Below, one piece after another: positions 9,168-28,848 of a stretch of 32,000 bases of DNA (its first letter is position 1; every line of letters begins with the position of its first letter). Where the stretch lies: NCBI RefSeq assembly GCF_000016165.1, contig NC_009253.1, positions 2,893,484-2,925,483 of the forward strand, written 5' to 3'. The stretch comes from Desulforamulus reducens MI-1. GTDB taxonomy: Bacteria; Bacillota; Desulfotomaculia; Desulfotomaculales; Desulfotomaculaceae. Under the pieces are notes generated by a model that searched no databases, was not told the origin of the DNA, and saw only the letters and a program-made list of their open reading frames with translations. Made by a program: the position numbers and the translations under genes.

Positions 9168-9178
9168 CCTTTATCCAC

Positions 9179-12100: not shown

Positions 12101-12703
12101 TCCGGCAGTTTTTAATGCTACAACTGTTCGAGCATCAAAGGCGGCAAAACCGCTGTTACTATAATCCTCTGAAAGGGGATAACGGCTTTTCAAAAAAGCA
12201 ACGGCCTTGGTGATAGCCTGTTCCACTCTTTCTTTTAAGGCTCCGTCCAAATCATCTTTGATCAGAGCCAGGGCTTCTAAGGCTATTTTGGTTCCATATT
12301 CGTTAGCATAAGGCCCAAAGCTACCATCCGGATTCTCGTGAACCAGAAGGTAAGTAATCAAGCTGTTTTTTTCCAATCCCAGTTCGTGTCCGATGGTGAT
12401 GGCGTCCGTAGCCTTAACCAAGTCTTGTTTGGCCGACGGGCAATATGGTTTTGTCCACTTGTCAGAACCCAAATCTTCCCCAGCTAGGGTTAAAACATAA
12501 GCCGTATAGCCGTCCAAACTTTCCCCGGCCATATATTTTTCATGTATGAACTCTACGGCTTTGCCAGCTAATTCTCCTCCACTGGCTGTTGTAGGTTCGT
12601 TGGCAAACGCAGAAAAAGGAAGTAGCAGATTGGTTAAAAAACATACCATGAACAACAACACGATTCTCTTGCCAATCGATGAATTAAAAAAGAGGTTTCC
12701 CAT
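9179..12703 (-). CDS. Large S-layer-homology (SLH) anchored surface protein: signal peptide, extended alpha/alpha-toroid repeat region, DUF4430 domain, unknown domain, three C-terminal SLH modules
   Basis: 1174-aa ORF, ATG with AAGGAG SD. Signal peptide ends ...LLPFSAFANE. Toroid-type repeats: HENPDGSFGPY, RQISDGDNMGAWDS, KQRNDGSYQTGWDD, LNNDGSFGDS. It also carries a G/S/T/P linker, a DUF4430 domain and three SLH repeats. Confidence 0.8.
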   Translation of the reverse strand: MGNLFFNSSIGKRIVLLFMVCFLTNLLLPFSAFANEPTTASGGELAGKAVEFIHEKYMAGESLDGYTAYVLTLAGEDLGSDKWTKPYCPSAKQDLVKATDAITIGHELGLEKNSLITYLLVHENPDGSFGPYANEYGTKIALEALALIKDDLDGALKERVEQAITKAVAFLKSRYPLSEDYSNSGFAAFDARTVVALKTAGEDLTQDGWVKNGISLQDKAVAEAVYAAENANDKSATELAKHLGALYALEPTHEKVSQLGDAIRSKASVTEEGQVYFGSGGDFGVFDQVAVLRALGETNQLTGVDQVNALTYLNEFQRDHDEWGTPAGKAYGTSYTPKDSELTAQAVTALSKFDSDVAGEAIDDALTYLKSVQDKDTAALPVSGDSSTAAAELLIALKKQGLTYDQYAGENALWAKVPQAKSVGLNLLAMKGFEEAERVEKLTFLLHDQHSSQGFSNNLFGDVWAYLALGTEGQIDAIKDDARIFLLDRQISDGDNMGAWDSTYPDYPDFMATSQAVRSLTYLKGYATDADVAASIKKGVDYLKEKQRNDGSYQTGWDDAVVDTSEMILTMKRLNQDPRELKSGEGKSPVDWLLEKSLNNDGSFGDSKNVFGATIALNAFHTLGFTPSSGGSTPGDGGNTPGVDTASVGVIVVGKTGSKLFGPSYVTVEKTGQWGMTAMEALHQTGLSYSDRDGFVTAIEGEANQGMTGWMYMVNGRTPMVMAKDQPVKDGDKVIWWYSLDINNPGPTWETATDGSWSNQPAVNSNIPSSVQEQVDLLPSSLQPTSSVAKTLEDIQKVLGIAGSTSVLGSLSDVKQAVAVVAPDKLMKGEEAQERQKKLQANRVEIEQQVEANKGAVVSDAGEEMALVIPANALGASAQITVREETPLPMSPSDINSSIQGWEKLPEGFRAVSPVYHMGPEGLTFSEPVTVAIQVALPENVQPENLVFSWYNPQEKTWVALPAVFDAERSLIMARISHFSRYMVTGKTTTPTMDPQPARKTFADLTGFDWARDAIESLAGQGIISGVSEERFEPGRTITRAELATLLARIKNLSASDMYPFSDISPTDWFASPVSAAAKAKIVSGYPDGTFDPHHPVTREEMAVMLVRAFQLTGGEKPVTFNDRETIGPWASESVATMLDQGVIKGYEDNTFRPKNPATRAEVAVLLHRLVSMK
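9194..9703 (-). other. Three tandem SLH cell-wall-binding modules (domain-level annotation inside the 1174-aa CDS)
   Basis: Residues ~1001-1170: FADLTGFDWARDAIESLAGQGIISG...TRAELATLLARI; FSDISPTDWFASPVSAAAKAKIVSGYPDGTFDPHHPVTREEMAVMLVRAF; FNDRETIGPWASESVATMLDQGVIKGYEDNTFRPKNPATRAEVAVLLHRL. Confidence 0.85.
10469..10765 (-). other. DUF4430 / transcobalamin-like C-terminal domain inside the 1174-aa CDS
   Basis: Residues ~647-745: SVGVIVVGKTGSKLFGPSYVTVEKTGQWGMTAMEALHQTGLSYSDRDGFVTAIEGEANQGMTGWMYMVNGRTPMVMAKDQPVKDGDKVIWWYSLDIN. It aligns by eye along its whole length with the C-terminal domain of the 234-aa protein. Confidence 0.7.
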
Positions 12704-12718
12704 TACACATTTCTCCTT

Positions 12719-13444
12719 CTAGTTATCTGATATTGCTTGACAATATTTTTGAATAGCTCCGGTTAGAGTTCTTTGAACGCCGTTGGCCAATAGACAGCCG
12801 GTTACAGTAGTGGGGCCGGCATAATCCGCCAAAGGTCCTTTGGGATTTCCCGCCACAATGACAGCATCGGTACCCGTACCAGTGGCCGGAAAACCCGACT
12901 GAAGACATCGAACCCCCATCTCTCCCAGAGTTCTGGTCTTGGCTTCAGTAATGGTTTGCACCGCATTAACCAATCCTCCCGGTGTCAACGAATGGGACAA
13001 AAAGGCCATGATGTTGATGGTTCCCGGACAGGGCTTGGTTTGAGAAAAACAAACCGTTAGGCCTGCCGCACAAGCATTGCTCAAGCCAGCGGTGGTGATG
13101 ACCACAGCCTCCTGGGTTCCACAAGCCAGTTGAGCCCATACGCCATGACTAACCCAGGCGGCTGTCATTAGAGCAGAGCAAGCGTCTATTTGACAAAAAG
13201 GCAGGGTTGCCTCTAACCATTTTGTCATTTCCTGGTTTGGGTTGCAGGCATCATAATTTTTGGACACCTGTCGATTTAGAAAAAGAAGTTTAGTACCAAT
13301 ACCCCCACCCAAGACGCCGGAGCCAATGGAAAGCCAAGGTTCATTAGCCTCTACCAGAATACACTTTGAAGTTACCCGGCCTCGCAATCCAGACAGCAAA
13401 TGGATTGGCGTGTCGGGCTTAGGCGAAAACATATTCATCTTCAC
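12719..13444 (-). CDS. cbiZ: Adenosylcobinamide amidohydrolase (corrinoid salvage/remodelling)
   Basis: 241-aa ORF, GTG start with GGAGGG 6 nt upstream. Motifs I associate with the CbiZ family: LSIGSGVLGGG, MTAA, GTINIM, LVNAVQTITEAKT, ATGTGTDAVIVAG. It is the first gene downstream of the cobalamin riboswitch. Confidence 0.8.
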   Translation of the reverse strand: MKMNMFSPKPDTPIHLLSGLRGRVTSKCILVEANEPWLSIGSGVLGGGIGTKLLFLNRQVSKNYDACNPNQEMTKWLEATLPFCQIDACSALMTAAWVSHGVWAQLACGTQEAVVITTAGLSNACAAGLTVCFSQTKPCPGTINIMAFLSHSLTPGGLVNAVQTITEAKTRTLGEMGVRCLQSGFPATGTGTDAVIVAGNPKGPLADYAGPTTVTGCLLANGVQRTLTGAIQKYCQAISDN

Positions 13445-13534
13445 GGACAGCCCTCCATAGATTGTTTTTCCTCAGTGATAAAAAAACAATACATCTCCTT
13501 TGCTATAAAATAATTGTTTGTACTAAGCACAAAT

Positions 13535-13561
13535 AAACCTTACCCAAAAAAGGTAAGGTTT
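13535..13561 (-). terminator. Putative riboswitch expression-platform terminator hairpin
   Basis: RNA sense: AAACCUUACC-UUUUUUG-GGUAAGGUUU followed by AUUUGUGCUU. It lies between the aptamer and the cbiZ start. The U-tract is only moderate, so control at the translational level is not excluded. Confidence 0.45.
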
Positions 13562-13628
13562 ATTGAAGTAAGCCACTGGCTTAGTGCCTCTCACCTTCCC
13601 ATCGACCGTGGGTATATTCTGGTGAAAC

Positions 13629-13805
13629 AAACAGGTAGGTCTCCTGACTTAGAATCATCAAAACTTCACGTCTTCCCAGTTGATTACCTCATCGGCTTAA
13701 ACCAGTGACACAGGTGTGAAGATTTTCATCCATACAGTGGCGGGACCGCGCCGGCTTTGCACCGGTCTTCCCTTTTAACGCTTCTTAATAATAAGCGGCC
13801 TGTTT
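13629..13805 (-). promoter_or_regulatory. Cobalamin (B12) riboswitch aptamer
   Basis: Minus-strand RNA reads ...AAAAGGGAAGACCGGTGCAAAGCCGGCGCGGTCCCGCCACTGTATGG... (GCCACTG core at 13741..13735) and ...AAGTCAGGAGACCTACC (B12 box, 13650..13634). A closing helix pairs AAACAGG (13805..13799) with CCTGTTT (13635..13629). It matches the conserved cobalamin-riboswitch core from memory. Confidence 0.9.
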
Positions 13806-13830
13806 CTTCTGTATAAAATTGTATAAATTG

Positions 13831-13968: not shown

Positions 13969-14042
13969 TGGAGCGGGTGAAGGGAATCGAACCCTCGTAA
14001 TCGGCTTGGAAGGCCGACGCTCTACCATTGAGCTACACCCGC
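13969..14042 (-). tRNA. tRNA-Gly (anticodon UCC), 74 nt with genomically encoded CCA
   Basis: Reverse complement GCGGGTGTAGCTCAATGGTAGAGCGTCGGCCTTCCAAGCCGATTACGAGGGTTCGATTCCCTTCACCCGCTCCA folds as a cloverleaf. Acceptor GCGGGTG/CACCCGC, D arm GCTC/GAGC, anticodon stem TCGGC/GCCGA with loop CT-TCC-AA, and T arm with a TTCGATT loop. Confidence 0.95.
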
Positions 14043-14199: not shown

Positions 14200-14688
14200 T
14201 TAGGGATAAAAGTAATCAATATGGAAAATTTCTGTATTTATCTTATTGCCTTGTATTTCAATAAGACCCACTGAGGGTCTTTTCCTACCCCTTGGCTGTA
14301 CCGGACTTCCCGGGTTGATGATCATAATATTATCAATAACCCGAAAATCAGAAATATGAGTATGTCCATAAATGGCCACCTGAGCCCCTAATTCCTTTGC
14401 CCTTTCCAAAATGGAATTGGTACCATACTTTACACCATGCCGATGCCCATGGGTTATGAATATTTTAAAACCTTCCACCTCTAGTAAATCTTCAATGGGG
14501 GCATCACCAGGATAATCACAGTTACCCATGACTCCCTTGGCAGGTACCTCCAGGGTAAAGGCCAATTCATTGCAATCCCGATAGTGATCCCCAGCATGGA
14601 GAATGAGGTCCACCTTCCCTATATGTTTCATTATATGATAAATGGGACCCAGCCTACCGTGGGTATCCGCTAAAACCAAAATACGCAA
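14200..14688 (-). CDS. YfcE/MJ0936-family metallophosphoesterase
   Basis: 162 aa, TTG start with AGGAGG SD. Calcineurin-like motifs are present: LADTHG, GDH, GNCD, HGH, GHTH. Confidence 0.85.
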   Translation of the reverse strand: MRILVLADTHGRLGPIYHIMKHIGKVDLILHAGDHYRDCNELAFTLEVPAKGVMGNCDYPGDAPIEDLLEVEGFKIFITHGHRHGVKYGTNSILERAKELGAQVAIYGHTHISDFRVIDNIMIINPGSPVQPRGRKRPSVGLIEIQGNKINTEIFHIDYFYP

Positions 14689-14691
14689 TCC

Positions 14692-15297
14692 TTAAACCTC
14701 CTGGTGAATGTAAAGGCGGTTTAGAATCTCCATTGCTTTTTTTAGAGCTTTCCCCCGGTGACTAATGGAGTTCTTCTTTTCCATATCCAATTCTGCAAAG
14801 GTTTGTTTATATTCCGGCACGTAAAACAGGGGATCGTAGCCAAAACCACCCTCGCCCTTTAATTCTCTTAAAATAACCCCCTCACAGCTTCCTTCCGCTG
14901 TGTGAATCCTACCATTAGGTTCCGCAATGGCTATGACACACCGGAATCTGGCTGTCCGATGATCCTGGGGAACTCCTTCCAACAGACTTAATAATTTAGC
15001 ATTGTTTGCCGTATCGTCCTTGGGTTCCCCAGCAAAACGGGCTGAGTAAACCCCCGGCGCACCCTTTAATGCATCCACCTCTAAACCCGAATCATCGGCC
15101 AAAGCCAATTCTCCGGTAAATTCTGCTGCGGCCAGAGCTTTTTTAATGGCATTGTCTGCAAAGGTATTTCCGTCTTCCTCTACCTCTGTAAAACCCGGAA
15201 ATTCGCCGATGGAAACTACCTGATACCCGCAGGGTTTTAATAGCTCGGCCAACTCTTTCACTTTGCCTTTATTGTTGGTTGCTAAAACTAACTTCAA
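14692..15297 (-). CDS. rdgB: Non-canonical purine NTP pyrophosphatase (XTP/dITP diphosphatase), RdgB/HAM1 family
   Basis: 201 aa, TTG start with AGGTG SD. Family motifs: LATNNKGKVKE N-terminus, DDSGLEVDAL, GFGYDPLF, SHRGKAL. Confidence 0.9.
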   Translation of the reverse strand: MKLVLATNNKGKVKELAELLKPCGYQVVSIGEFPGFTEVEEDGNTFADNAIKKALAAAEFTGELALADDSGLEVDALKGAPGVYSARFAGEPKDDTANNAKLLSLLEGVPQDHRTARFRCVIAIAEPNGRIHTAEGSCEGVILRELKGEGGFGYDPLFYVPEYKQTFAELDMEKKNSISHRGKALKKAMEILNRLYIHQEV

Positions 15298-15306: not shown

Positions 15307-16044
15307 CTACCCTATCTTAGCTGCTATATCTCCCAGTACCTGGCGCTGAACCTTATTTAATTCTTCAATACCCGCTGCGGCTAAATCCAGAAGTTGATTC
15401 ATTTCTTCTCTGGAGAAGGTGGCTTCCTCCCCGGTACCCTGAATTTCAACAAATCGCCCTGTTCCAGTCATAACCACGTTCATATCCACTTCAGCAACAG
15501 AGTCCTCTGCGTAGCACAGGTCAATAACCGGTCTGCCCTTGACAATCCCTACACTGGTAGCAGCTATAAAGTCACTGACGGGTATTTTCTCTAGCATACC
15601 CTGTTCAACCAATCTGTTCAAGGCAAAAATCATTGCCACATAGGCTCCGGTAATGGATGCCGTACGGGTACCCCCATCGGCCTGAATAACATCACAATCC
15701 ATTGTTAGGCTACGTTCACCCAAGGCTTCCAGATTCACCACTGAACGAAGGGCACGACCAATCAGTCTTTGAATCTCCATTGTTCTACCACCAAGTTTTC
15801 CTCTGGCTGCTTCACGGATGGTACGGCTACCGGTGGCCCGGGGAAGCATAGAATATTCGGCAGTTACCCAGCCTTTGCCTAATCCCTTCAAGAAGGGCGG
15901 TACCCTTTCTTCCACGGTGGCAGTACAAATAACCCGCGTATCTCCTACTTCAATCAAAACAGAACCCTCAGCGTATTTGTTATAATTAGGTGTCATGCGC
16001 ACTGGACGTATTTGTCCCTGCTTTCTTCCGTCAACTCTGTCCAA
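15307..16044 (-). CDS. rph: Ribonuclease PH
   Basis: 245 aa, TTG start with AAGGAGG SD. Motifs: [62 protein letters not shown]. Confidence 0.95.
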
Positions 16045-16057: not shown

Positions 16058-17029
16058 TTAAGTAATCTGTTTGGAACGCCTGCGTGCCCTCCGCATAAGC
16101 TGGAACTGATCCGGTGGGGTTACGAGGCTGTCTCCTTCTACCACAGGTCCCACCAGACCCACCAAAACGTACAACTGGTCAATGGGGTCCCATTTAAATT
16201 CTTTCACCAGTCGGAAGTTCATAATCTCACTGGTTCTCTTTACGTGCAGGCGTGGCCCTGTACAGGGAAAAACAAGACTTTCCCCTATTTTAATATTTGT
16301 CTCATCGTGATAGTAAATACAAATATCCTTATCAATAACTTCTTTAACTCTTTTTTCCAATGAATTAAGGTCGATATTGGGTATTTCTTCAAATTCTAGC
16401 ACAAAACCATGCTTAATATCGCTGTGAACTTTGGGTCTCTTAATCCCAAATTCATGCTCCAAGACCAGCCCTGTGATATCCTCGGCGGTATGGGCCATTT
16501 TTCTATAAATCAGGGATTCATAGACAATATCGACAATCTCCTGGGGCTCCGGCCCAAAAATATTGGGTCTGGTTACAATAACCTCTTCTCCGATACCAAT
16601 AAGAATCTGAGCATTCATTTTCAACATAGAATAAAGAAGGTCAAAATGCTCCACAATAACCCGTCGATCATGCTTAATGGCCTCCTGTACAGCTTCTACA
16701 ATGATCCATGGTTGCGTAAAGGCCATTTCAAAACGCATATCCAAATGATACGTCCGACTACGAAAATGTTTTTTTTCAAAATCATCTAGTAATGGCAATG
16801 GACGAACATTGATTCCATCATCATCATTAGTAAGCTCCAAACCCGGAAACATTCCCCGTATGAGTAAGGATTTACCTGCCCCGGCATCCCCCACAAAACC
16901 AATTAAGTGATCCTCCGGACTGAGGTAGCGATGGGCTAAGTTGCCGCCCAGGGCCAGTAAACGGTAGCGTCCCCTGGGCGCAAAATAGACCGCATGCATT
17001 AAATACTCGTGAATAATCGATACTGGCAA
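16058..17029 (-). CDS. Uncharacterised P-loop NTPase
   Basis: 323 aa, TTG start with GGGGGAG SD. It has a Walker A motif ([13 protein letters not shown]) and a candidate Walker B (RRVIVEHFD). I recognise no further family. It is tightly packed between the MBL hydrolase and rph. Confidence 0.6.
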
Positions 17030-17043: not shown

Positions 17044-17790
17044 TTATATCACGATGGTAGCTCCTTCCCTGGCTAGTTCTGTGGTCTTACCAAATCCCTC
17101 CTCCGCCTGTCTTTGCAATTTTGAGAGAACATATTCGGGGTAAAAGTGAGTGATCATTAAACGTTTTGCACCGGCTGCCGCAGCCACTTGCCCTGCTTGA
17201 CGGGCAGTTAGGTGCTTTTCTTTTAGATAATCGGCATCCTGCTCTAAACCACTGGCCTCACAAAGTAATAGGTCTGCCCCGATGGCCAGTTCAATTAAGC
17301 CTTCATTGAAAGCGGTGTCCCCGGAGAATATAAACCTTTTGCTTCCCTCAATGGAAATGCTGTAAGCCGGCAAATTATGTTTTGCCGGAACAAACCTGGC
17401 TTTTAGCCCTGCCATTGTTATTTCCCGAGGATCAGGTATTTCATCAATTATATGAATTTGAAAGGCTTTCGTAAAGTCTTTAATCCTTTGAAAATCCTCC
17501 GCGGGGCCCGTTGGCATGTAAAGGGGCACCAACCTATTCATCCGCCCCTCTCGATTAGCGGCCTCGATGGCATGTCTCAGGGAGTAAATATCCATGATAT
17601 GATCTGGATGCAGGTGGCTAAGAAATACCGCATCCAGGTCCTCAATGTTAATGTGCTGTAGCATTTTACTTAATATGCCATTACCCGCATCAATAAGCAG
17701 ATTACACCCGTTATCCTGCAATAAATAGCCGGAGCAGGCACCGCTGACCCGGGGGTAAGGCGCCCAGCAGCCAAGGACGGTAAGTTTCAA
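17044..17790 (-). CDS. MBL-fold metallo-hydrolase (YhfI / RNase Z-like short form)
   Basis: 248 aa, TTG start with GAGGTG SD. It carries the HLHPDH zinc motif (SHLHPDHIMD) plus a downstream H (PAKH), a D (SGDT) and an H (ITHF). Confidence 0.85.
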   Translation of the reverse strand: MKLTVLGCWAPYPRVSGACSGYLLQDNGCNLLIDAGNGILSKMLQHINIEDLDAVFLSHLHPDHIMDIYSLRHAIEAANREGRMNRLVPLYMPTGPAEDFQRIKDFTKAFQIHIIDEIPDPREITMAGLKARFVPAKHNLPAYSISIEGSKRFIFSGDTAFNEGLIELAIGADLLLCEASGLEQDADYLKEKHLTARQAGQVAAAAGAKRLMITHFYPEYVLSKLQRQAEEGFGKTTELAREGATIVI

Positions 17791-18002: not shown

Positions 18003-18767
18003 TCACCCCAAAGCAAAGGCACAGCACCCAATGGCTCCATTGTACTGGGGGTGTTGCGGTACCACCACGGGTACCTTCATTTCATTCTCTATGATTTTAA
18101 CCAATGCCTGGCTATGGGCAACCCCACCGGTAAAAACAATGGTATCCGTCAGCAATTTGCTAAGCATCGGTTTAATTCTCTTAAAAATGGTATAATTTAC
18201 CCCAGCCCCCAGAGCAGAAATGGGGTGACCTTCCACCACTTTGCCAATTAATTCTGTTTCTCCAAAAATAGCGCAGGTAGAGTTCAGGTCCACCGGGTTT
18301 TCATCATAATAGGCCAGTTCATCCATATCAATATCAAGCACCGCTGCCATGTTCTCCAGATAACGGCCAGTGCTGGCCGCACATTTATCGTTGGTTTGGA
18401 AATCCATCATTCTCCCCTTGGACACTAAAACTACCTTACTATCCTGCCCCCCGAGGTCCAGCAGGGTGAATTCAGAAAGTCCCGTTTGGTGTATGGCCCC
18501 TAGTACATGGGCTTTTATTTCAGGTAAAATGTCCGCCCCTTTTAAATTAATGGTCTGTCTTCCATAACCAGTGGCTACAATCTTTTCAGGTAACCCTATC
18601 CCCAGAGCCTCCAGATCCACCAGTAGTTCCCCGTTTACGCTTTTACCGTGTTTTCGGTAAAAAGATACTGTGTCAAACTTACGAAAAGAGAGGCCGCCAT
18701 CCTTATCCATTAAGGCCACTTTTACATTCCGGCTGCCTAAATCAATACCGCAAATCAATGTTATCAC
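18003..18767 (-). CDS. 2-hydroxyacyl-CoA dehydratase activase (BcrAD/BadFG/HgdC-type ATPase, [4Fe-4S] archerase family)
   Basis: 254 aa. The N-terminus GIDLGSRNVKVAL is the ASKHA phosphate-1 motif, followed by DLGGQDSKV and FTGGVA. The GTG start overlaps the upstream stop (GTGA); a TTG three codons downstream is an alternative start. Confidence 0.85.
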   Translation of the reverse strand: MITLICGIDLGSRNVKVALMDKDGGLSFRKFDTVSFYRKHGKSVNGELLVDLEALGIGLPEKIVATGYGRQTINLKGADILPEIKAHVLGAIHQTGLSEFTLLDLGGQDSKVVLVSKGRMMDFQTNDKCAASTGRYLENMAAVLDIDMDELAYYDENPVDLNSTCAIFGETELIGKVVEGHPISALGAGVNYTIFKRIKPMLSKLLTDTIVFTGGVAHSQALVKIIENEMKVPVVVPQHPQYNGAIGCCAFALG

Positions 18768-19726
18768 CTCAACATATCCAAAAAGGCATCCAACCGCATG
18801 CGCGTGCGGGCATCCAACTTATTGGGTTTATCTCCCTCCAATGTTAGAATGGGATATTTTAATTTCTGCCGAACAATTAAGTCTTCTATTTGACGGTAAC
18901 AGAAACTTTGGGCGTAGTGAATTACCCCATCCACTTGCCTTTGCTCCAGTTCCCGGCTGATATCTTGCAAACGATAAAAAATGCCGTAGGGATAACTGTA
19001 AATTCTGTACTGCTCTACGATGTCGTCCGTTGCAAAGGGCATGGTAAACTGTCGCTGTACCTCGTTAAATACCACCCTGGCACCCCGTTCCTCCACATAA
19101 TCATACAAATCATCCATAATAGGAGGAACGCCAATATAAGCCAGACGTACCTTTGCCTTGATGGGTTCCTTTGCGGGTAGCTCTGCCAGGTATTGGTCCA
19201 CCCTGCGGCCAAAATCCTCTGGGTCTCCCTCCAAGTCACTGCAGCAGACTTGATATAAATGATTATCCCAACCCCGCACCCTATCCCCCTGCCAAGTTAA
19301 GCGATCCAATTCATGTACTTTGCTCCGAATGGCATCCAATCTTTTTTTGGCGTGATAAACTTCGTCCCAGGTGGTTCCCAGGGTATTAATCAGCTTTTCC
19401 ATCTGCAATTTTAACAAATCATAGTCTCGATCAAAGGGAAAAGCAAAGGGTATAACATTAACTCCGGCCATTTCCAGCGTTTCCATTAGGGCATGGGTGT
19501 TACTACAATCACCCTGGGTTACTGCGATAAGGGTCTGAATATCATCATTCTGAAGAATAGTGGAATAAAGCCCCTTTATCCAGGCACAGAGATTGCGGGG
19601 ATAACCCGCCATCTCTGCCTCCTCTACCAGACTCTGTGGATTTTCATGGGTCACAAAAATATTATTAAGATCCACCGGTATTAACCCTGCAGCATAAACC
19701 ACTTCCACTGGGATGGTGGTGGTCAT
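18764..19726 (-). CDS. 2-hydroxyacyl-CoA dehydratase family protein (HGD-D-like, single short subunit)
   Basis: Start placed at ATG 19726 (MTTTIPVEVVYAAG, GGAAGG SD 5 nt upstream) rather than GTG 19741. Features are typical of the family as I recall it: the TTIPVE N-terminus, conserved Cys (NLCAW, GDCSNTH, SFCYRQ) and a C-terminal ...LEGD...D.R...R...F. Only one subunit gene is present. Confidence 0.75.
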   Translation of the reverse strand: MTTTIPVEVVYAAGLIPVDLNNIFVTHENPQSLVEEAEMAGYPRNLCAWIKGLYSTILQNDDIQTLIAVTQGDCSNTHALMETLEMAGVNVIPFAFPFDRDYDLLKLQMEKLINTLGTTWDEVYHAKKRLDAIRSKVHELDRLTWQGDRVRGWDNHLYQVCCSDLEGDPEDFGRRVDQYLAELPAKEPIKAKVRLAYIGVPPIMDDLYDYVEERGARVVFNEVQRQFTMPFATDDIVEQYRIYSYPYGIFYRLQDISRELEQRQVDGVIHYAQSFCYRQIEDLIVRQKLKYPILTLEGDKPNKLDARTRMRLDAFLDMLR

Positions 19727-19741
19727 TCCAACCTTCCGCAC

Positions 19742-20992
19742 TTAGGAAATAACCCCCTTAGCTCGCAGCACTGCCAGGGTCCGGTTCATCTCATTAAAAG
19801 TGATCATCAGTCCTTCATCCACACCCATGCCTGGTTTGGCCAACATTTGATCTGGTTGTGTGGCAATACCGATATGTACGCAAACCTGTGCTGAGCGATC
19901 CGTTTCATTACAGGTGCCGCCCAAGTAGGCCCCGATACCACGTTCCTTAGCATATAGAATAGCCTCAATGGTATTATTAATTCCACCCAAATCTGGGGTT
20001 TTAATCTGTACCATATGCCCTGCCTTGGCATCCACAAACTCCCTGATATCCTCTAGGGTGTTGCACCATTCGTCCGCTACGATTTCAACATTGGTACCCC
20101 TTTTTTCCAAGAGTTGCCGTAATTCTGCCAGAGCTTCAATTTGAGCAGGCTTATTTCCCCGGTCCATGGGCCCCTCAATACGAAGCTTTAAAGGTGCAGC
20201 AGCTAATTCTAACTGGGCTAAGTAATCGGCCATGCGATGGGTGTTTTCATCAAAGGCCTGTCCGATGGTGCCATAAACATCAATATGTAAAATGGGGGTA
20301 TAATCCTCTCCACCCAGCTTAAGGGCACGTTCCTTTAACCACGTCACATAATCCAACAGCTTCTCACCTTTACGGCCAAGCTTTTCTTCAACATTGTTTA
20401 TTAAACCATGGGGCAATACATCGGCCCTTTTAATTATAATTTTATCAGCATTGGTGTAACGTTCGTCTCCAGTTTGGCAGAAAATTGGCACCCGGTTTCC
20501 CACCAGACTGCAGTTGTATTCTCGCGCCACAATCTCCGCCATTGTACATTGAGCAGCCTTAGCTGCAGCATCCAGTAAAGCCTGGGTAATACCATAACGA
20601 ATGGCTGTGTGGTAACGGCTGCCGTCTGGCCGGGTTAGCTGATCAAACTCCTCTGCCAATGCCCGAAAGCCGTTGACATCCCGCCCAATTAGCTGAGGCA
20701 AAATTTCTTTTTCCAAAACGGGTATAAAGTCGCTGGCCAGAAATAAAGGGTCCCGTCCACCAGCACCGGAATACTGTACAGCAGCACAATCCCCATAGGC
20801 CACTAGGCCGCTCTCCAGCAGTAGCAACACTGAAATAGACTCCCCCCGCTGACGAACCATTGAAAAACCAGGGGTAGCTGGTTCACCCAAATAGGCAAAA
20901 CCATCATGCTCTCGTCCCATCTTAATAGCCTTTTGATCATCAAAGTAAAAGCCGGTTAAGCCCGGCGAAACAACAGCACCGGTTATTTTCAT
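19742..20992 (-). CDS. mal: Methylaspartate ammonia-lyase (beta-methylaspartase)
   Basis: 416 aa, ATG with GGAGGA SD. The N-terminus MKITGAVVSPGLTGFYFDDQKAIK matches the conserved MAL N-terminus. It shows an enolase-superfamily layout (KIKTPDLGG, GGTCNETD). Confidence 0.9.
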   Translation of the reverse strand: MKITGAVVSPGLTGFYFDDQKAIKMGREHDGFAYLGEPATPGFSMVRQRGESISVLLLLESGLVAYGDCAAVQYSGAGGRDPLFLASDFIPVLEKEILPQLIGRDVNGFRALAEEFDQLTRPDGSRYHTAIRYGITQALLDAAAKAAQCTMAEIVAREYNCSLVGNRVPIFCQTGDERYTNADKIIIKRADVLPHGLINNVEEKLGRKGEKLLDYVTWLKERALKLGGEDYTPILHIDVYGTIGQAFDENTHRMADYLAQLELAAAPLKLRIEGPMDRGNKPAQIEALAELRQLLEKRGTNVEIVADEWCNTLEDIREFVDAKAGHMVQIKTPDLGGINNTIEAILYAKERGIGAYLGGTCNETDRSAQVCVHIGIATQPDQMLAKPGMGVDEGLMITFNEMNRTLAVLRAKGVIS

Positions 20993-21103: not shown

Positions 21104-22564
21104 TTATCTGACCTTACCCACCAGCATTCCTTTGCCAATGGCATAAATATCATCAATGACCATTTGAAAGCTGGGTTCCCTGCCTTCAGTCTTTCCTCTT
21201 TGTGCTATTTTTTCCCGGTGAATCTCTTTTATATCTTCACCAAAGGGCAGGTTTCCAAAATCCAGCAGGCGAACCGCTCCATAATAATCCCTGGCCGGTA
21301 ATAATTTACCTGCATTATAACGACTGGGAGCAAAGGGGACATCAATCACACCAGCCTGGAAACCCCGAACGGTACCCACAGCAATGTCTCCCTCACCAAA
21401 TTCCAATAGTTTTTCTAAGATAGCCCTTGTTTCTGCTTTAATAAGTTCTTTCTCCTCGGTCAATTCTTGGGACTGCATGAGAGGCTGATCCTTCAGCATA
21501 TTTAAAATCTGCTTGGTTGCTTTAATTCCAGAAGCATTGGCTTCCTTAGTAGGAATACCCATTGCTTCATGTGGCGTTTTGACAATGACTTTGGTAGCCT
21601 TCGCCAGAGCAGCGGTTGCCGCACCCCAGCTAATTACACCAAAGGCTTTACTCTCATCCTGGGGAAAGCCACCCATCCATTGGTGGAAAACCGTGGTAAC
21701 AACGGTATCTTGATACCCGAAACGGGAAAGATATTCATCGGCCAGCTCTTCCAGGGAACGGATAGCCGCCACATCCTGGGTTAAGTTGCCGCACTGACCA
21801 TAGCCAAGGGTTAAACTTTTTACACCCTGTTCTGCTGCCAACAGTGCTTCTAGGATAGCAATACTATGTGAAATACAGGGTGGTACCAATGTTCCGGTTA
21901 GTGGTCCAAAGGGTTCTCGGTTAATGGAGATACCTCTCTCTTCATAGTACCCTACCAGTCGGTCGGCATATTGCCAATCCCGGATGGAACGCTCCAGAGG
22001 AACATCCTTGGCATAGGGAATGTTGTAGGAAATACCGCCACCCTCGTAGGCTGTGAAACCGCCGGCCAGTGAAATCTCGGTCAGTAGCCGAGCATCAGGT
22101 GTCCCATGCCGTACCTGTACCGGAGATATTACCGATTCAACCACCTGGCGGCAGGCTACAACACCGTGGTTTACAGCAGGAAAACCATTTAACATAGAAC
22201 GTCCTACGGACCGACTCTCGTCAATACCCGCTTGGGCTTCGTTATAACGATTTTGCCGGGTATAACTATCGATGGTGGTGGGTAATAAATCCGCCTCTCC
22301 TTCGGTTTCCAGGTAGCGCAGAAGCTCAATGTGTTCATTTACCAGTGCAACTCCAGCTCTGGGTTGCGCTAGGGTAATACCTTCTTGTTTAGCGGTTTCC
22401 AGTTTTTTAGCAAAGCGGCGATTGTCAGGTATCTTCGATTGGTATGCAATGGCCTCTTCCAAATCTACTTCCTGCCCGGTGGGCCAGCTGTTTAATATTT
22501 CCCTACGAATTTCGAGGAATTGATCCCATTCCAACCTCTTATTGGTTAATTGCAAGTATCTCAC
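21104..22564 (-). CDS. glmE: Glutamate mutase epsilon (E, catalytic) subunit / methylaspartate mutase
   Basis: 486-aa ORF. ...[34 protein letters not shown] resembles the GlmE N-terminus from memory. It sits between glmL and mal as in clostridial mut/glm clusters. GTG 22564 lies only 1 nt from the SD AGGAG, so TTG 22555 ([10 protein letters not shown]) is the more likely start. Confidence 0.9.
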
Positions 22565-22750: not shown

Positions 22751-24139
22751 TTAAGCTTCAACCATATATTTTTTTGCCAGTCGTAGGGCTGCGGTTGGTT
22801 TTACTTCTGCCAAGAGACCCACTGCAGCCAGAATATACTCTTTATCCAACAAAAATTTAGGCTGCTTGGGTCGGAGAACCGTAGGTTGGTCCTGTTTATA
22901 AAGTGCACCCTCTAGGATTTGTCTGGGATGAGGATGATTAACAATGACACCCCCTGTACCAATTAAATAGGGTACTTCTGTAAGATCCTTGCCATGTTGA
23001 ATATACATAGCCCCCATGGGTGTCCAAACATTTTCCAGGGTACCGGCATGTCTTTCCATTGCCAGATCTGTGGCCAGGCGAGCCATTGCCGTATCAATTT
23101 CCCATTGTTTTCCGTTCTCTGGCAGTAATTCAACACGATTTTGTACATATTGAACATAGGATTCCACTTCCGACTCCGGTAATCCTGTTACAGAGGCCAG
23201 TCGTCGAGATCCGATGGATTCCAATAGCGAAAGGGCACTAACCCGCATGCCCAGATCCCCTTCCACCGTGCGTTTTGTGAAGGGTTCCGGTAAACCTTTA
23301 TAGGTAACCCCAGAGCGGGTGGGATGCCCTTCGGCCACTGAATGTATATCAGTGGTGGCACCTCCAATGTCTACGACGATTAATTCTCCCAACCCTGCTT
23401 CATCTTCTGTGCCTGTGGACAAGAGTTTTGCTGCATTTAAAACCGCCGCCGGGGTTGGCATCAAAACCCCTTGTATGTAGGTTTCCGCCCTTCGTAATCC
23501 CTTGGCCTCCACAATTTTCTCCAGGAAGGTGGCTCGAATAGCATCACGGGCCGGTTCTACATTTAATTTATTTAATTCCGGCAGTACATTGGCCGTTACT
23601 CGTACATCCTTACCCGCTTTAAGAAGAATATCCTGAACTTCATCAGCGGCGGATTTGTTACCGGCAATAATAATAGTATTACCGTACTTGGTTTTAGCCA
23701 ACATTCTGGCATTGTGCAGAATGGTTTCTTTATTGCCTCCGTCAGTACCACCGGCCAGTAGTATGATATCTGGACAACTTCCATCGATTTGTTCTATCTC
23801 CGAGGATGTAAGTTGATGGGCGTAGACACCCAGTATTCTAGCCCCTGCTCCCAAGGCCGCCTGTCTTGCTGCTTCCACCGTCAGTTCCTTGACCAGTCCA
23901 ATGGCTACCATTCGCAGTCCGCCAGCTGCACTGCTACAGGCCAAACGGCTTTGAAATTGAGGTAACGTACCACCAAAAAAAGGTTTTATTTCTTCCAGTG
24001 CTTTGTTTAAACCTTCCAGGATATTGGTTTCCACTGTGGTAAGACCTTTGGCTGTGGCAATAACTTCCGTAGCTTCTACATCCACGGCTGTGATCTTGGT
24101 ATAGGTACTACCAAAATCAATTAATAGGGCCAGTTCCAT
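22751..24139 (-). CDS. glmL: Glutamate mutase-associated protein GlmL/MutL (ASKHA-fold putative reactivase/chaperone)
   Basis: 462 aa, ATG with AGGGGGGA SD. The N-terminus LLIDFGSTYTKITAVD and VVDIGGATTDIHS are ASKHA ATPase motifs. It sits between glmS and glmE as in Clostridium mutS-mutL-mutE. Confidence 0.85.
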   Translation of the reverse strand: MELALLIDFGSTYTKITAVDVEATEVIATAKGLTTVETNILEGLNKALEEIKPFFGGTLPQFQSRLACSSAAGGLRMVAIGLVKELTVEAARQAALGAGARILGVYAHQLTSSEIEQIDGSCPDIILLAGGTDGGNKETILHNARMLAKTKYGNTIIIAGNKSAADEVQDILLKAGKDVRVTANVLPELNKLNVEPARDAIRATFLEKIVEAKGLRRAETYIQGVLMPTPAAVLNAAKLLSTGTEDEAGLGELIVVDIGGATTDIHSVAEGHPTRSGVTYKGLPEPFTKRTVEGDLGMRVSALSLLESIGSRRLASVTGLPESEVESYVQYVQNRVELLPENGKQWEIDTAMARLATDLAMERHAGTLENVWTPMGAMYIQHGKDLTEVPYLIGTGGVIVNHPHPRQILEGALYKQDQPTVLRPKQPKFLLDKEYILAAVGLLAEVKPTAALRLAKKYMVEA

Positions 24140-24151: not shown

Positions 24152-24586
24152 TTAGCATTTCTGGACAAACCCAAAATCCATTAACAAATCATCAATGGCT
24201 TCCTGGGGCATGGTTCCCGGAGGATAGGCCCGGTCAAAGCCCATGGCCAGAAACTTTTTCTCCACTGCCTGCCAGTCCTGTTTGCCAACCACTAGGTTAC
24301 CACCTACATATAATTTGATGTCACCAATACCGGCTTCCACAGCCTTTTCTCTTAGACCACGGCAGTCAATTTCTCCGTGTCCATAGAGTGAGGAAACCAA
24401 GATTGCATTGGCATTGGTTTCCACCGCAGCGTTGATAAACTCCTCTTGGGACGCCATCACCCCAATGTTTACCACTTTAAAACCTGCTTCTGTAAAAGCA
24501 TATTCCAGAATTCGGTTTCCCACCGCGTGAACGTCTGCCCCTATGACGCCCAGTACTAAAGTTAATTGTTTCTTTTCCTCAACCAC
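24152..24586 (-). CDS. glmS: Glutamate mutase sigma (S, B12-binding) subunit
   Basis: It has the B12 base-off/His-on motif DxHxxG (GADVHAVGN) in a Rossmann-like small subunit. I place the start at GTG 24586 ((M)[23 protein letters not shown] 6 nt upstream), not the ORF-track TTG 24607. Confidence 0.9.
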
Positions 24587-24714
24587 ACGGAAGACCTCCC
24601 AGTTCAATTCGCTTATTAATAAATTGCTTGATTTTTCTTAGTTTCTCCCATTTTGGAAATTCTTCCTCCTTAATAGAGAACGATTTTACTTTTATTTTTC
24701 CATTATACAATAAT

Positions 24715-24744
24715 AAAACTCGGCAAACTTCTTCACCGAGTTTT
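24715..24744 (-). terminator. Terminator hairpin downstream of the amidase gene; overlaps the probable glm-operon promoter region
   Basis: Stem AAAACTCGG (24715..24723) / CCGAGTTTT (24736..24744) with a 12-nt loop. On the minus strand it is followed by AUUAUUGUAUAAU. A TATAAT box (24707..24702, minus) lies immediately downstream. Confidence 0.55.
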
Positions 24745-24752
24745 AGCTTCAT

Positions 24753-26603
24753 TTATTGTCCATAAAAATATGCATTAATCCCTTTAACAATGGCTTCTGC
24801 TGCTTTTTCTCTAAAGTCTTCGGAACTAAGCAACGCTTCTTCGTCGGAGTTTGAAATAAAGGCTGTCTCAATGAGAATACTGGGCATCATACTGGTACGC
24901 AATACGGCAAAATTTGCTTGTAGTACGCCAATATCACGCCTTCCTAGGGCAGCCGTCAGCTCATTTTGAACATTCCTAGCCAGCCGGTAACGATCATCCT
25001 TTTGTTCGTATAGATTAGGCATGTTGTTAGGGGCATAATAATAGGTAGATGTTCCATCAATCGATCGGTTTAGATTAGCATTGCTGTGAATACTTACAAA
25101 AATATCAGTACTTTGCTCATTGGCCAACCGGGTAATTTCATACAGGTCAACAAACTTGTCATCGGAACGGCTCAAAAATACATTGGCCCCTTGTTTTCTC
25201 AGTAATTCAGCTACTTTTAAAGTAATGTCCAGGTTTACATCCTTTTCTTTTAAACCATTCTGACCAGATGCGCCGCCATCGTGACCACCATGACCGGCAT
25301 CAAGAAATACTGTTTTACCCTTTATGCCATCGCTGTAGGAGATTTTGCTAATATCTAAGGTTAATGATTTTTTATCCTCAGACAGACTCACCTTTACCCT
25401 GGCCCGTTCCTTTAGATCAACGACCAACCGTGAGTAATAGGGGTCCTGATTATAGCCGGTTCTTATTTGACCAACCAGTTCAGTATTAGCAGAAATGGTT
25501 TCCGGAGTATTGTCTAGATAAACATCACTTAAATTTACCACATAGCGAGAAGGGCTGGATAAAGGAAAGGTATTATAATTAATTTTCTTGTCACTGACAA
25601 TATTTATGTAGGTGTGATCTTCTTTTTCTTTTACCTCTATATCCACCAATTTTGCCTTGGGAACATTTTTGTTTTCCTCCGTATCTGAACTTCCACCGGT
25701 TTGTTCACTGCTAGCTGGTGTTAAGCCTGGTAGCCAGCTATTATCCTCTGTACTGGGTTGAGAAGGTTGGGATGGTTGTTGAGGTTTCTGGGGTTCCAGA
25801 GGTTCCGGTTGATCCACCACCGATACCAACCAACCTGCCACCCATGCCGTTGAACCATTGGCCTGTCGTACTTGTAACCATTGGCCAGATCGGCTGATGA
25901 TAGGTAAGCGAATCCCCCTGCTGACCTGACCTGCCACACTGTGGCTAGTTCCTGGGCCACTACGCAAATTCAAATTATCTGAATTGATGACCACAACTTG
26001 ACCAGCGGGAGCAGGCTTGGCAATTGTTGGCGAAGTAACCGATGCCGGAGCAGTGGGCTTGTTTTCTACTGCTACTAACCAACTAGCCACCCAGCCGGTA
26101 ACATTGGCCCCTTGTACTTTAATCCAGTCGCCCTTCTGAGTCAGAACAGTAAGCCGGTCACCCTTTTTTACTTTTCCTGCAATACCATACGTGGTACCGG
26201 GGCCACTTCTTATATTCAGATTATCCCCCTTCACCACTGCCACTTTGCCACTGTTTACGGCAGGGGTTCCTTCAGGGGCTTTCGCCGGCGCAGATTTCCC
26301 CGGGGTATCCTTTACACTCACCAGCCAACCAGCGGCCCAGGCAGTTTTCCCGCCTATCTGGACTTTATACCAATCCCCGTTTTTAGCTAAAACAGGTAAT
26401 TTCGTTCCCTTAGTGGCCTGACCCATCATGGCTGTATTGGTATCAGGGCCGCTTCTCAAATTTAGCTTATCAACATTTACAATGACCACTTGGGTTGCGT
26501 AGGCCGGTTGATTCACACCAACAGGATTAAACATAATTGAAAAAACTAACCCCGCTAGAACGGCATATCGAAAAAAACGCTTATATATTAGATTAAGAAT
26601 CAT
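24753..26603 (-). CDS. N-acetylmuramoyl-L-alanine amidase (Amidase_3) with three SH3b repeats and an AMIN-like domain
   Basis: 616 aa. It has an N-terminal signal/anchor, three ~80-aa SH3b repeats, a P/Q/S-rich linker, an AMIN-like segment (LVDIEVKEKEDHTYINIVSDKKINYNTF) and a C-terminal catalytic domain (VFLDAGHGGHDGGA, FVSIHSNA, ETAFISN). Confidence 0.9.
   Translation of the reverse strand: MILNLIYKRFFRYAVLAGLVFSIMFNPVGVNQPAYATQVVIVNVDKLNLRSGPDTNTAMMGQATKGTKLPVLAKNGDWYKVQIGGKTAWAAGWLVSVKDTPGKSAPAKAPEGTPAVNSGKVAVVKGDNLNIRSGPGTTYGIAGKVKKGDRLTVLTQKGDWIKVQGANVTGWVASWLVAVENKPTAPASVTSPTIAKPAPAGQVVVINSDNLNLRSGPGTSHSVAGQVSRGIRLPIISRSGQWLQVRQANGSTAWVAGWLVSVVDQPEPLEPQKPQQPSQPSQPSTEDNSWLPGLTPASSEQTGGSSDTEENKNVPKAKLVDIEVKEKEDHTYINIVSDKKINYNTFPLSSPSRYVVNLSDVYLDNTPETISANTELVGQIRTGYNQDPYYSRLVVDLKERARVKVSLSEDKKSLTLDISKISYSDGIKGKTVFLDAGHGGHDGGASGQNGLKEKDVNLDITLKVAELLRKQGANVFLSRSDDKFVDLYEITRLANEQSTDIFVSIHSNANLNRSIDGTSTYYYAPNNMPNLYEQKDDRYRLARNVQNELTAALGRRDIGVLQANFAVLRTSMMPSILIETAFISNSDEEALLSSEDFREKAAEAIVKGINAYFYGQ
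25818..26492 (-). repeat. Three tandem SH3b-coding repeats inside the amidase gene
   Basis: The protein repeats are: VVIVNVDKLNLRSGPDTNTAMMGQATKGTKLPVLAKNGDWYKVQIGGKTAWAAGWLVSV; VAVVKGDNLNIRSGPGTTYGIAGKVKKGDRLTVLTQKGDWIKVQGANVTGWVASWLVAV; VVVINSDNLNLRSGPGTSHSVAGQVSRGIRLPIISRSGQWLQVRQANGSTAWVAGWLVSV. Confidence 0.85.
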
Positions 26604-27807: not shown

Positions 27808-28761
27808 CTATCCAATTTTTTCAACCTGTTGCATATCTCCAGCGGACTCTTTCTTAAAGCGAATTACCTTTGGCTGCCAATTTAACTCCCTTAGCAATTG
27901 GCTATAATCTTCAGCCGAAACATCTTCCCAAGCTTTTTTTAACAATACCAGGAAAACGGCCTCCATAACATTGGTACCAAAGGTACGCCCCTGAAATTCT
28001 GGCGTGGTGGTGATCAATGCACTGGCTCCACGGTCCATCAATTCTTCCACATCCTCCCGGGTAGTGGTATTAGTCAGAATCATTTGACCCTTTAATTTTT
28101 TCGGCAGGTACTTCCGAATAAAATGGTAATCCCCGGCCACCACTTCCGCCTCGTCATAGTATTTAGCATATTTCTTACTGTTGAACCGATGCTGTTTTTC
28201 CTGACTTTGTCCTGTAGGATACAGCATCCGAAAGGGTAATCGTGAAATCACAGGCATTAGTTTTGAAGCAATGTTGTGCAACTTCTCTAAACTGTACAAA
28301 GGTAGGCGAATACCCAAGGAAAACATCAAGTCCCCAAGTGTTAGCTGGCAACCGATCTTGGCAAAGGCCTCTGCCATGCCAAAGCGGTCCATTGCACTGA
28401 CCATTAGTACCCGTGTATCTTGCTTAACCAAACCTTGGGCACCCATATATTCCACGGCTTGCCGTTCCAGGGTATTTTTTAACCCACTACCATCAACCAC
28501 TGGCGTCTTTTTTACTGTTTCTAACAAGCGTAGACCGTCCTGTAAAACATAACGGGTGTTTCCTGCATACAAGTAGACATCAATACCGCCCAGCCCAATG
28601 GCATCTACCTTACCGTCTAATTCTTTTAGAATGGAGATGGCTTTATCCATATTTCCGTCGGTACCAGTACGGCTAATTTCAAATTCCTCACCCAAAATCT
28701 CGACCCTTGCCACATGGTTTCTTCTGGAAGATCCTAAACTGACACTGACAACCTTTTTCAT
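27808..28761 (-). CDS. Conserved protein of unknown function (possibly the family often auto-annotated 'quinate 5-dehydrogenase-like'; not verified)
   Basis: Start placed at ATG 28761 (MKKVVSVSLGSSRRN, GGAGGG SD 6 nt upstream) rather than 28806, giving 317 aa. It looks soluble with an alternating beta-alpha pattern. I cannot assign a function from sequence alone. Confidence 0.55.
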   Translation of the reverse strand: MKKVVSVSLGSSRRNHVARVEILGEEFEISRTGTDGNMDKAISILKELDGKVDAIGLGGIDVYLYAGNTRYVLQDGLRLLETVKKTPVVDGSGLKNTLERQAVEYMGAQGLVKQDTRVLMVSAMDRFGMAEAFAKIGCQLTLGDLMFSLGIRLPLYSLEKLHNIASKLMPVISRLPFRMLYPTGQSQEKQHRFNSKKYAKYYDEAEVVAGDYHFIRKYLPKKLKGQMILTNTTTREDVEELMDRGASALITTTPEFQGRTFGTNVMEAVFLVLLKKAWEDVSAEDYSQLLRELNWQPKVIRFKKESAGDMQQVEKIG

Positions 28762-28848
28762 ACCAGCCCTCCGTAAAAACTCTAGATATAGCCAGTTTAA
28801 CCACATTTTAAAAAACTAGACACCCTGCTAAAATAAAAAGAATCACTT

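Follow-up and report, generated by a model that had tools for sequence, protein, structure and literature searches.

Organisation of the locus

A stretch of 32 kb from Desulforamulus reducens MI-1, called the window here, was analysed with regard to two genes that follow the genes of glutamate mutase (glmS, glmL, glmE) and methylaspartate ammonia-lyase (mal). The first of the two encodes a lone protein of the HGD-D family, the second an archerase-type activase. On balance we favour the view that this pair is an old, vertically inherited and self-contained module and not a step of the methylaspartate pathway. All genes of interest are located on the minus strand. Scanning of the open reading frames (ORFs) of at least 100 aa with Pfam and NCBIfam and inspection of the sequence gave the following features, listed from the upstream end:

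24753-26603, minus strand: SH3/AMIN/Amidase_3 cell-wall amidase (Pfam), conserved upstream backbone gene
24714-24745, minus strand: terminator-like 14-bp hairpin, 3' of the amidase gene
24152-24607, minus strand: glmS, glutamate mutase subunit S, B12-binding (NF002612, 222 bits)
22751-24139, minus strand: glmL/MutL, glutamate mutase accessory protein (NF040745, 665.2 bits)
21104-22564, minus strand: glmE, glutamate mutase subunit E (TIGR01503, 786.8 bits)
19742-20992, minus strand: mal, methylaspartate ammonia-lyase (TIGR01502, 618.6 bits, cut-off 286; Pfam MAAL_N and MAAL_C)
18764-19726, minus strand: lone HGD-D-family gene, 320 aa (Pfam PF06050, 129.4 bits)
18003-18767, minus strand: archerase-type activase of the BcrAD/HgdC/HadI/DCCP-R family, 254 aa (TIGR00241, 183.1 bits, cut-off 125.4)
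17044-17790, minus strand: MBL-fold hydrolase (Pfam/NCBIfam), conserved downstream backbone
16058-17029, minus strand: P-loop protein unk323, no Pfam family, downstream backbone
15307-16044, minus strand: RNase PH, rph (Pfam/NCBIfam), downstream backbone
14692-15297, minus strand: RdgB/Ham1 (Pfam/NCBIfam), downstream backbone
14200-14688, minus strand: YfcE-type phosphoesterase (Pfam/NCBIfam), downstream backbone

The scores of glmS, glmE, glmL and mal all exceed the NCBIfam equivalog cut-offs by far. The hairpin behind the amidase gene is the likely upstream boundary of a glm-mal-HGD-D-activase transcription unit, and no comparable hairpin was found between glmS and the stop codon of the activase gene. 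The MBL gene follows the activase gene after a gap of 212 nt.

An earlier note on this DNA had described an HGD-D-family gene of about 320 aa at 15 nt behind mal and a GTGA overlap with the activase gene; both were confirmed by the sequence. The stop codon TAA of mal is followed by 15 nt containing GGAAGG and by the ATG at 19726, from which 320 aa are read; the GTG at 19741 given by the ORF lister would result in 325 aa. The stop codon TGA of the HGD-D gene (18764-18766) shares the motif GGTGA with the GTG start of the activase gene at 18767, which gives a 4-nt overlap (18764-18767). An alternative start of the activase, TTG, is located about 12 nt downstream and is preceded by GAGGTGA. The two genes are translationally coupled. 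The statement that mesaconase, citramalate lyase and CoA-transferase genes are missing from the window was also in agreement with our scans, in which no ORF matched the families of fumarase/mesaconase, citrate/citramalate lyase or CoA-transferase. Likewise, no family that could supply 2-hydroxyacyl-CoA from the operon (CoA-transferase, 2-hydroxyacid dehydrogenase) was present among these ORFs.

Properties of the HGD-D protein and its activase

Related loci were collected in a scan with one genome per species. This gave 80 loci with an HGD-D protein 60-91% identical to the D. reducens query, onto which the proteins of the window were mapped and in which all ORFs were clustered; glm and mal were searched within 10 kb. 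With 87 more distant loci, described below, 167 related loci were available altogether. Counts of backbone neighbours cover the 79 loci with intact HGD-D ORF; in L012 the HGD-D gene is frameshifted.

For the AlphaFold2 model of the 320-aa HGD-D protein (pLDDT 94, pTM 0.90), the only significant Foldseek matches in the PDB were DCCP (6ENO/7YYL), HadB/HadC (3O3M) and the catalytic subunits of class I benzoyl-CoA reductases (MbdON/BzdNO), with a TM of about 0.8 on the query and 14-20% identity. DCCP was the best PDB match in sequence and fold (Foldseek E 2.6e-12, TM 0.79, 20% identity), and the chains of 3O3M gave TM values of 0.78-0.82. With the family profile, the best alignments were obtained for DCCP (E 9.5e-19) and HadC (E 2.6e-15) as well. 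Three cysteines, C47, C74 and C276, are strictly conserved in all 79 orthologues compared (79 of 79) and are also kept in distant members. In the alignments they coincide with the three cluster ligands of HadC and three Cys of DCCP. From these alignments one [4Fe-4S] cluster per subunit is predicted on C47, C74 and C276. Judged by sequence, the protein is presumably homomeric like DCCP, but with only one cubane on three Cys, as in HadB/HadC. No characterised enzyme matches it, and it belongs neither to the heterodimeric 2-hydroxyacyl-CoA dehydratases nor to the double-cubane proteins.

DCCP and DCCP-R of Carboxydothermus hydrogenoformans (CHY_0487/0488; 6ENO, 7YYL) are also encoded by one gene of the HGD-D fold and one archerase gene, without a second subunit. 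A homomeric HGD-D protein with activase is thus already known, which the earlier note had overlooked. DCCP resembles the family studied here further in having no known physiological substrate (PMC7317905). It differs in length (421 aa compared with 320 aa) and in its seven cysteines (CX19CX18-19CX29CX166-170CX32-34CX32C), six of which bind an [8Fe-9S] double cubane, whereas the HGD-D family keeps three Cys only. The N-terminal Cys and two C-domain Cys of DCCP have no counterpart in the family alignment. With the NCBIfam model double_cubane (NF040772) a score of 46.4 bits was obtained for the HGD-D protein, compared with an equivalog cut-off of 350. Membership in the double-cubane proteins was rejected on Cys content and this score.

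The 2-hydroxyacyl-CoA dehydratases HgdAB, HadBC and FldBC (activators HgdC and HadI) have the HGD-D fold, the HadC-aligned three-Cys [4Fe-4S] site and an adjoining ATP-dependent activator with both cluster Cys in common with the pair. However, they are alpha-beta heterodimers of paralogous subunits with 375-480 aa, in contrast to the one 320-aa gene here, and they use CoA thioesters from a nearby-encoded CoA-transferase, a gene missing from the window. A hidden second subunit was considered for the D. reducens protein and rejected, because no second HGD-D gene was found in any of the 80 related loci with the hidden Markov model of the family. In this point the earlier note, which had described a short HGD-D-family protein that stands alone and has an activase of its own, was borne out. 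Class I benzoyl-CoA reductases (BcrABCD, BzdNOPQ, MbdONPQ; PDB 8S02, 9GAI) have catalytic subunits of the same fold and obtain electrons from the same ATPase family. They consist of four subunits, two different HGD-D-type and two different ATPase-type, compared with one gene each in D. reducens. Their sequence similarity to the family is marginal (profile E 1e-5 to 3e-6), and the benz_CoA_red NCBIfam scores of the window genes were far under the cut-offs.

In general, archerase-dependent enzymes, namely 2-hydroxyacyl-CoA dehydratases, benzoyl-CoA reductases and DCCP, perform some of the hardest reductions in biology. To our knowledge, just three architectures of these enzymes have been characterised so far. 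In a full-text search of the literature no functional study of the HGD-D family was found, and none on the glm cluster of D. reducens.

The activase matched HadI (4EHT, 6e-36), DCCP-R (7YYL_E, 4e-34) and HgdC (1HUX, 2e-30) in the PDB. Both cluster cysteines (NDKCAASTG, STCAIFGE) are present and aligned with those of HgdC and HadI. In the related loci the two genes are at most 24 nt apart in 41 of 64 pairs and overlap in 21, an overlap of 4 nt being the commonest. Furthermore, natural fusions of HGD-D protein and activase exist with about 600 aa. HGD-D protein and activase are a real unit.

A second HGD-D-like gene or domain, degenerate in sequence, is restricted to other lineages. In a lineage linked to the RNA 3'-phosphate cyclase RtcA (L091, L095, L098, L100, L106, L108), the HGD-D gene comes after a very divergent HGD-D-like/DUF2229 gene (e.g. 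L091:3019-4128) and a SPASM radical-SAM gene. In addition, the long proteins P0198 and P0176 are fusions of a degenerate HGD-D C-terminal half with an HGD-D domain and an activase. Because of this second gene and these fusions, some branches of the family may be heteromeric.

Conservation of the pair and its neighbours

The related loci share the gene order amidase-gerM-murI-[HGD-D-activase]-MBL-rph-rdgB-yfcE. Near the HGD-D gene the activase gene was found in 62 of 79 loci, rdgB in 47, rph in 43, murI in 38 and the MBL gene in 33; the amidase gene was located upstream in 34 of 79. Genes of glm and/or mal stand directly upstream of the HGD-D orthologue in 26 of the 80 loci. Neither was present within 10 kb in 54 of 80, where murI upstream and/or MBL-rph-rdgB downstream were retained, and HGD-D orthologues of 60-75% identity occur without glm/mal. 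The adjacency is not due to chance, as mal or glmE is located directly upstream in 26 of 80 loci, yet it is not the rule. The gene murI (Pfam Asp_Glu_race) is found 29-219 nt upstream of the HGD-D gene if glm is absent and upstream of glmS if glm is present. The spacing between mal and the HGD-D gene ranges from 9 to 1069 nt across the loci, with insertions.

A neighbour-joining tree of the HGD-D proteins agrees with taxonomy. On this tree glm/mal are distributed patchily over four clades: Desulforamulus; Thermincola/Carboxydocellales; Desulfosporosinus with acidophilic relatives; and Carboxydothermus islandicus. Thus, the pair is the vertically inherited part and glm-mal the variable element. 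In the 87 distant loci no glm or mal was found at all.

Different arrangements of pathway genes were observed. In the locus of Carboxydothermus islandicus (L077, 6735-11725) the pair comes next after glmS-glmL-glmE, and mal is missing; for C. hydrogenoformans a MAL gene not adjoining glutamate mutase was reported (Raj et al.). The order in Desulfosporosinus is GntR-murI-glmS-glmL-glmE-mal-[pair]-citD-citE-citF-citC-citX-citG, followed by the alpha and beta parts of a class I fumarase (Pfam). In the CEB3/Acididesulfobacillus group the fumarase genes are located directly after the pair. In L053, L149 and L160 fumAB was detected after the pair, or after pair and MBL gene, without glm.

As a side observation, an AtuA/DUF1446 gene and a small DUF4387 gene accompany mal/glm or fumarase genes in L024, L027, L034, L037 (17362-18756), L063 and L071. 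Kronen & Berg (PMC4682846) noted DUF1446 behind the mal genes of E. coli O157:H7 and Dictyoglomus. AtuA/DUF1446 is a recurrent companion of methylaspartase.

A different neighbourhood was found in Negativicutes (Pelosinus/Sporomusaceae; e.g. L036, L044, L051, L057, L067), with the order thioesterase-murI-(185-aa protein)-CofE-like F420_ligase gene-[pair]-hydantoinase/oxoprolinase-family gene-HDAC-like gene-rph. These neighbours have a glutamate-related flavour.

Such neighbours raise the question whether the module cooperates with MurI or with other enzymes of glutamate handling and has, for example, a derivative of D-glutamate, 2-hydroxyglutarate or 5-oxoproline as its substrate. We give little credence to this explanation. 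It is favoured by murI, which in 38 of 79 loci is the gene next upstream, by the CofE-like gamma-glutamyl ligase and the hydantoinase/oxoprolinase-family gene around the pair in Negativicutes, and by the consumption of glutamate by glmSLE. However, the linkage of murI and rph is an old Bacillota order even without the HGD-D module; the order in B. subtilis is gerM-racE-ysmB-rph-rdgB-ysnB. In addition, murI is found in only 5 of the 87 distant loci, and the locus of D. reducens and its close relatives has no murI.

Relation to the methylaspartate pathway

The occurrence of such a pair in glutamate clusters has a precedent, which the earlier note had overlooked. According to the legend of Fig. 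4 in Kronen & Berg (2015, PLoS One, PMC4682846), 'HgdBC' is drawn, uncommented, in glutamate-fermentation clusters. This is probably the same grouping of a MurI gene and an HgdB/HgdC-like pair with glmSLE-mal, mesAB and citDEFCXG, e.g. in the clusters of Desulfitobacterium hafniense or Thermosinus carboxydivorans. Classical clostridial methylaspartate clusters do not have the pair, although the pathway is biochemically complete there, and class I fumarase is a known promiscuous mesaconase (PMC4682846).

As Desulfosporosinus has citramalate-lyase and class I fumarase genes directly behind the pair, the pair replaces no enzyme of the pathway. A replacement of mesaconase or citramalate lyase was rejected, since relatives carry both directly behind the pair. 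Genes of both, which are absent from the window, are present behind the orthologous pair in Desulfosporosinus and relatives. The earlier note had proposed a homomeric, miniaturised dehydratase for a mesaconate/citramalate-derived thioester. The description as a lone, short protein stands, but not a role in place of mesaconase, in view of the fumarase alpha/beta and citDEFCXG genes behind the pair in Desulfosporosinus and of the classical clusters that lack it.

The pair could still be a true accessory of the pathway in the linked lineages, acting on a mesaconate- or citramalate-derived thioester or free acid, or keeping an oxygen- or redox-labile enzyme of the pathway (class I fumarase, glutamate mutase) active. 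We consider this unlikely. Its best arguments are the spacing of 15 nt to mal in D. reducens and the position of the pair in Desulfosporosinus, where mal precedes it and citDEFCXG/fumAB follow. Furthermore, 26 of 80 loci, spread over four clades, have glm/mal immediately before the pair, in C. islandicus (L077) the pair comes next after glmSLE, and 'HgdBC' is drawn in such clusters in the figure of Kronen & Berg mentioned above. Against it stand the orthologues without glm/mal in 54 of 80 loci and the lack of glm/mal in 87 of 87 distant loci, the absence of a CoA-transferase or ligase gene for thioester formation from the window, the pathway that is biochemically complete in organisms without the pair (PMC4682846), and the variable mal-to-HGD-D distance of 9-1069 nt with insertions.

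A role as an ATP-driven reductase, working beside GlmL in the rescue of inactivated cob(II)alamin on glutamate mutase, was also proposed in the earlier note and is very improbable. The pair adjoins the B12-dependent glmSLE, ATP-driven activators of corrinoid proteins exist as a concept in the RACE proteins (PMC7317905), and a B12 riboswitch-controlled salvage cluster is located 4.5 kb downstream. On the other side, most loci retain the pair in the absence of glm, the corrinoid activators known so far come from another family, a GlmL is encoded here anyway, and the salvage cluster is not beside the pair in the close relatives L001-L004. In particular, a reductase for glutamate mutase is at variance with the HGD-D genes that have no glm nearby in 54 of 80 and 87 of 87 loci. 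In summary, membership of the pair in the methylaspartate pathway is only weakly supported, and its attachment to this pathway is most likely positional.

Distant family members and queuosine genes

An exhaustive HMMER search of 1.84 billion representatives yielded 134 clusters of 50% identity at E<=1e-30 and 360 at E<=1e-3, the latter number possibly taking in more distant HGD-D relatives. The family shows at least 60% identity across bacterial classes. Seven distant members were looked up and found in unrelated settings (in Spirochaetota, in an archaeon between TBP genes, and others), with an adjacent activase gene in some only. A metagenome scan seeded with six divergent family sequences gave 80 further loci, which together with the seven form the 87 distant loci. 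In 11 loci of one lineage RtcA is encoded directly downstream of the HGD-D gene.

By ORF clustering of the distant loci, NCBIfam and Pfam scans and tblastn, queuosine genes were detected one to four genes from the HGD-D gene in 13 of the 87 loci. Five arrangements were found:

HGD-D-activase-queC-queD-queE, then two family-4 UDG genes: L112, L131, L141, L161, L167 (with folE2 in L141)
queD-queE-HGD-D: L089, L093
DUF366-queE-HGD-D: L090, L162 (with queD-queC before in L162)
queE-queC-HGD-D: L088
HGD-D-(DUF2065)-queA-tgt(-yajC-secDF): L086, L103, L157

QueC and QueD scored above the equivalog cut-offs, and the Pfam domains of QueA and TGT are present in L086. The queE gene overlaps the HGD-D gene by few nt in L089 and L090 (4-nt overlaps). 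The 13 HGD-D proteins represent nine lineages, with less than 60% identity between lineages, and share 45-54% identity with the D. reducens protein. Thus, the D. reducens protein is no more remote from any of them than they are from one another. The residues E8, C47, C74, D164, E222, R252 and C276 are kept in all 13. One of the arrangements is that of the cultured Acetivibrio thermocellus (ABN54298.1; CP013828.1, stretch 735541-754527), with HGD-D and activase genes upstream of queC-queD-queE, and another is that of Pseudobacteroides. In two unrelated lineages a DUF366 gene stands directly before queE and the HGD-D gene (L090:1417-1938, L162:5335-5889); DUF366 may be another component of 7-deazaguanine metabolism.

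The stretch L141 contains folE2-queD-queE-queC together with the pair, and no queF was detected on it. By tblastn and domain scans (census covering the top 25 of 49 families), no family of queF, queG or queH was detected in the loci searched. Of these enzymes, QueF has a tunnel fold and depends on NADPH, QueG contains B12 and a [4Fe-4S] cluster, and QueH is a DUF208 [4Fe-4S] protein (PMC5372742, PMC5175355). QueF (preQ0 nitrile reductase) and QueG and QueH (epoxyqueuosine reductases) catalyse the reductive reactions of the pathway, whose other genes adjoin the HGD-D family in nine lineages. Between this family and the three enzymes there is no homology and at most a possible functional analogy. 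The HGD-D proteins are acidic, with an isoelectric point of about 5-6 (4.95 in D. reducens), which fits a free base or small molecule as substrate better than tRNA. RNA or nucleoside metabolism is the common theme of the queuosine genes, of the RtcA lineage and of rph and the RNase Z-like MBL in Bacillota.

Judged by these neighbours, 7-deazaguanine/queuosine synthesis is the best, still putative, functional lead. Tentatively, the family, with its archerase where one is present, is a candidate 7-deazaguanine/queuosine enzyme of strict anaerobes, a proposal that we regard as possible and not as probable. It would most likely be an ATP-energised Fe-S reductase of free preQ0, converting the nitrile to the amine as a non-orthologous substitute of QueF, or otherwise a third type of epoxyqueuosine reductase. 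No link of HGD-D proteins to queuosine was found in the full-text search of the literature.

Alternatively, the family could reduce or detoxify small molecules in general, in the manner of DCCP, without belonging to a fixed pathway, and its neighbourhoods would only reflect inherited gene order. The mixed neighbourhoods (FBPase, GAPDH, TBP genes, histidine kinase) are in line with this, as is DCCP itself, which lacks a known physiological substrate (PMC7317905). However, queuosine genes recur in nine lineages, in several orders and with overlapping frames, which inherited order does not explain, and the identity of at least 60% across bacterial classes suggests one specific core function. This alternative thus appears improbable.

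Further features of the window

Downstream of the yfcE gene a tRNA gene (77 bits; 13972-14042, minus strand) is followed by a cobalamin riboswitch (RF00174, 113.5 bits) at 13617-13818 on the minus strand. The riboswitch precedes a run of corrinoid-related genes, the first three listed here, which are followed by four further genes (whole region 3619-13818):

12719-13444, minus strand: CbiZ
9179-12703, minus strand: SLH/DUF4430 surface protein, 1174 aa
8463-9167, minus strand: DUF4430 protein
6998-8422, minus strand: prenyltransferase-like/Cu_amine_oxidN1 protein
6058-7053, minus strand: ECF CbiQ
4322-6220, minus strand: double ABC ATPase
3619-4344, minus strand: ECF S-component-like protein

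The region 3619-13818 looks like a B12-regulated cluster for corrinoid salvage and uptake, 4.5 kb from the B12-dependent glutamate mutase. A link between the two was rejected, because the position is not kept in the close relatives L001-L004.

The protein unk323 (16058-17029) has 323 aa and a P-loop (GDAGAGKS), and is named 'alanine-tRNA synthetase second additional domain-containing protein' by NCBI. Neither a Pfam or NCBIfam family nor relatives in a PDB sequence search were found for it. It was found in 9 of the 10 rph-linked loci that have glm/mal, compared with 0 of the 34 without glm/mal; its homologues are widespread (4171 matches). Upstream of the amidase gene a 332-aa ORF without Pfam family (27808-28806, minus strand) was found, which has this position in 27 related loci.

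Proposed model and significance

The reading of the pair as an independent module is based on the 54 of 80 and 87 of 87 loci without glm/mal, on a tree that follows taxonomy and on a pathway that is complete without the pair. By homology (PMC7317905, PMC11574389), the activase would act as a homodimer with bridging [4Fe-4S] cluster, in which ATP hydrolysis drives one low-potential electron into the HGD-D protein. The latter is presumably a homodimer with one [4Fe-4S] cluster on three Cys. This ligation would leave one iron free for an O or N atom of the substrate and would permit radical or reductive chemistry on a small molecule. For the family, 7-deazaguanine/queuosine synthesis would be the most likely role, our specific guess being an ATP-driven, QueF-like reduction at the level of preQ0.

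In Bacillota, the module would be hosted by the housekeeping string amidase-gerM-murI-[module]-MBL-(fumAB)-rph-rdgB-yfcE, into which glmSLE-mal may have been inserted around the module in some lineages and citDEFCXG in others. Where a lineage bears fumAB in the string, its resident class I fumarase probably came to serve as mesaconase through this insertion. The fumarase would have attracted the pathway genes, and the pair would have been enclosed as a co-transcribed passenger.

Several observations weigh against this model. In D. reducens the HGD-D gene begins 15 nt past mal with no terminator found between them, so that the pair is probably co-transcribed with mal. The location of glm/mal directly upstream in four clades and of pathway genes on both sides in Desulfosporosinus would also result from a true accessory function. 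Only 27 of the 87 distant loci have an adjacent activase gene, and many neighbourhoods consist of plain housekeeping genes, e.g. for FBPase and GAPDH. Concerning queuosine, the window and the 80 Bacillota loci have none of its genes close to the pair. No preQ1 riboswitch was detected before the pair or queC, either in ten loci searched at the gathering threshold or in two intergenic regions searched at E<=1. Finally, the NADPH-dependent QueF is cheap and widespread, and the gain from an ATP-driven substitute is unclear.

With a single subunit and a single three-Cys cluster, the HGD-D family would be a fourth, minimal architecture of archerase-dependent enzymes, in a family of several hundred 50%-identity clusters that may include more distant HGD-D relatives. 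For annotation it follows that 'HgdB/HgdC' within glutamate-mutase clusters is not evidence for a hydroxyglutarate or hybrid pathway. If the queuosine lead is true, it would bring a new kind of chemistry to a textbook pathway of tRNA modification and would, for the first time, assign a physiological substrate to a homomeric member of the superfamily. The pair of D. reducens would then be a tRNA-modification enzyme that merely shares a transcript with genes of glutamate fermentation.

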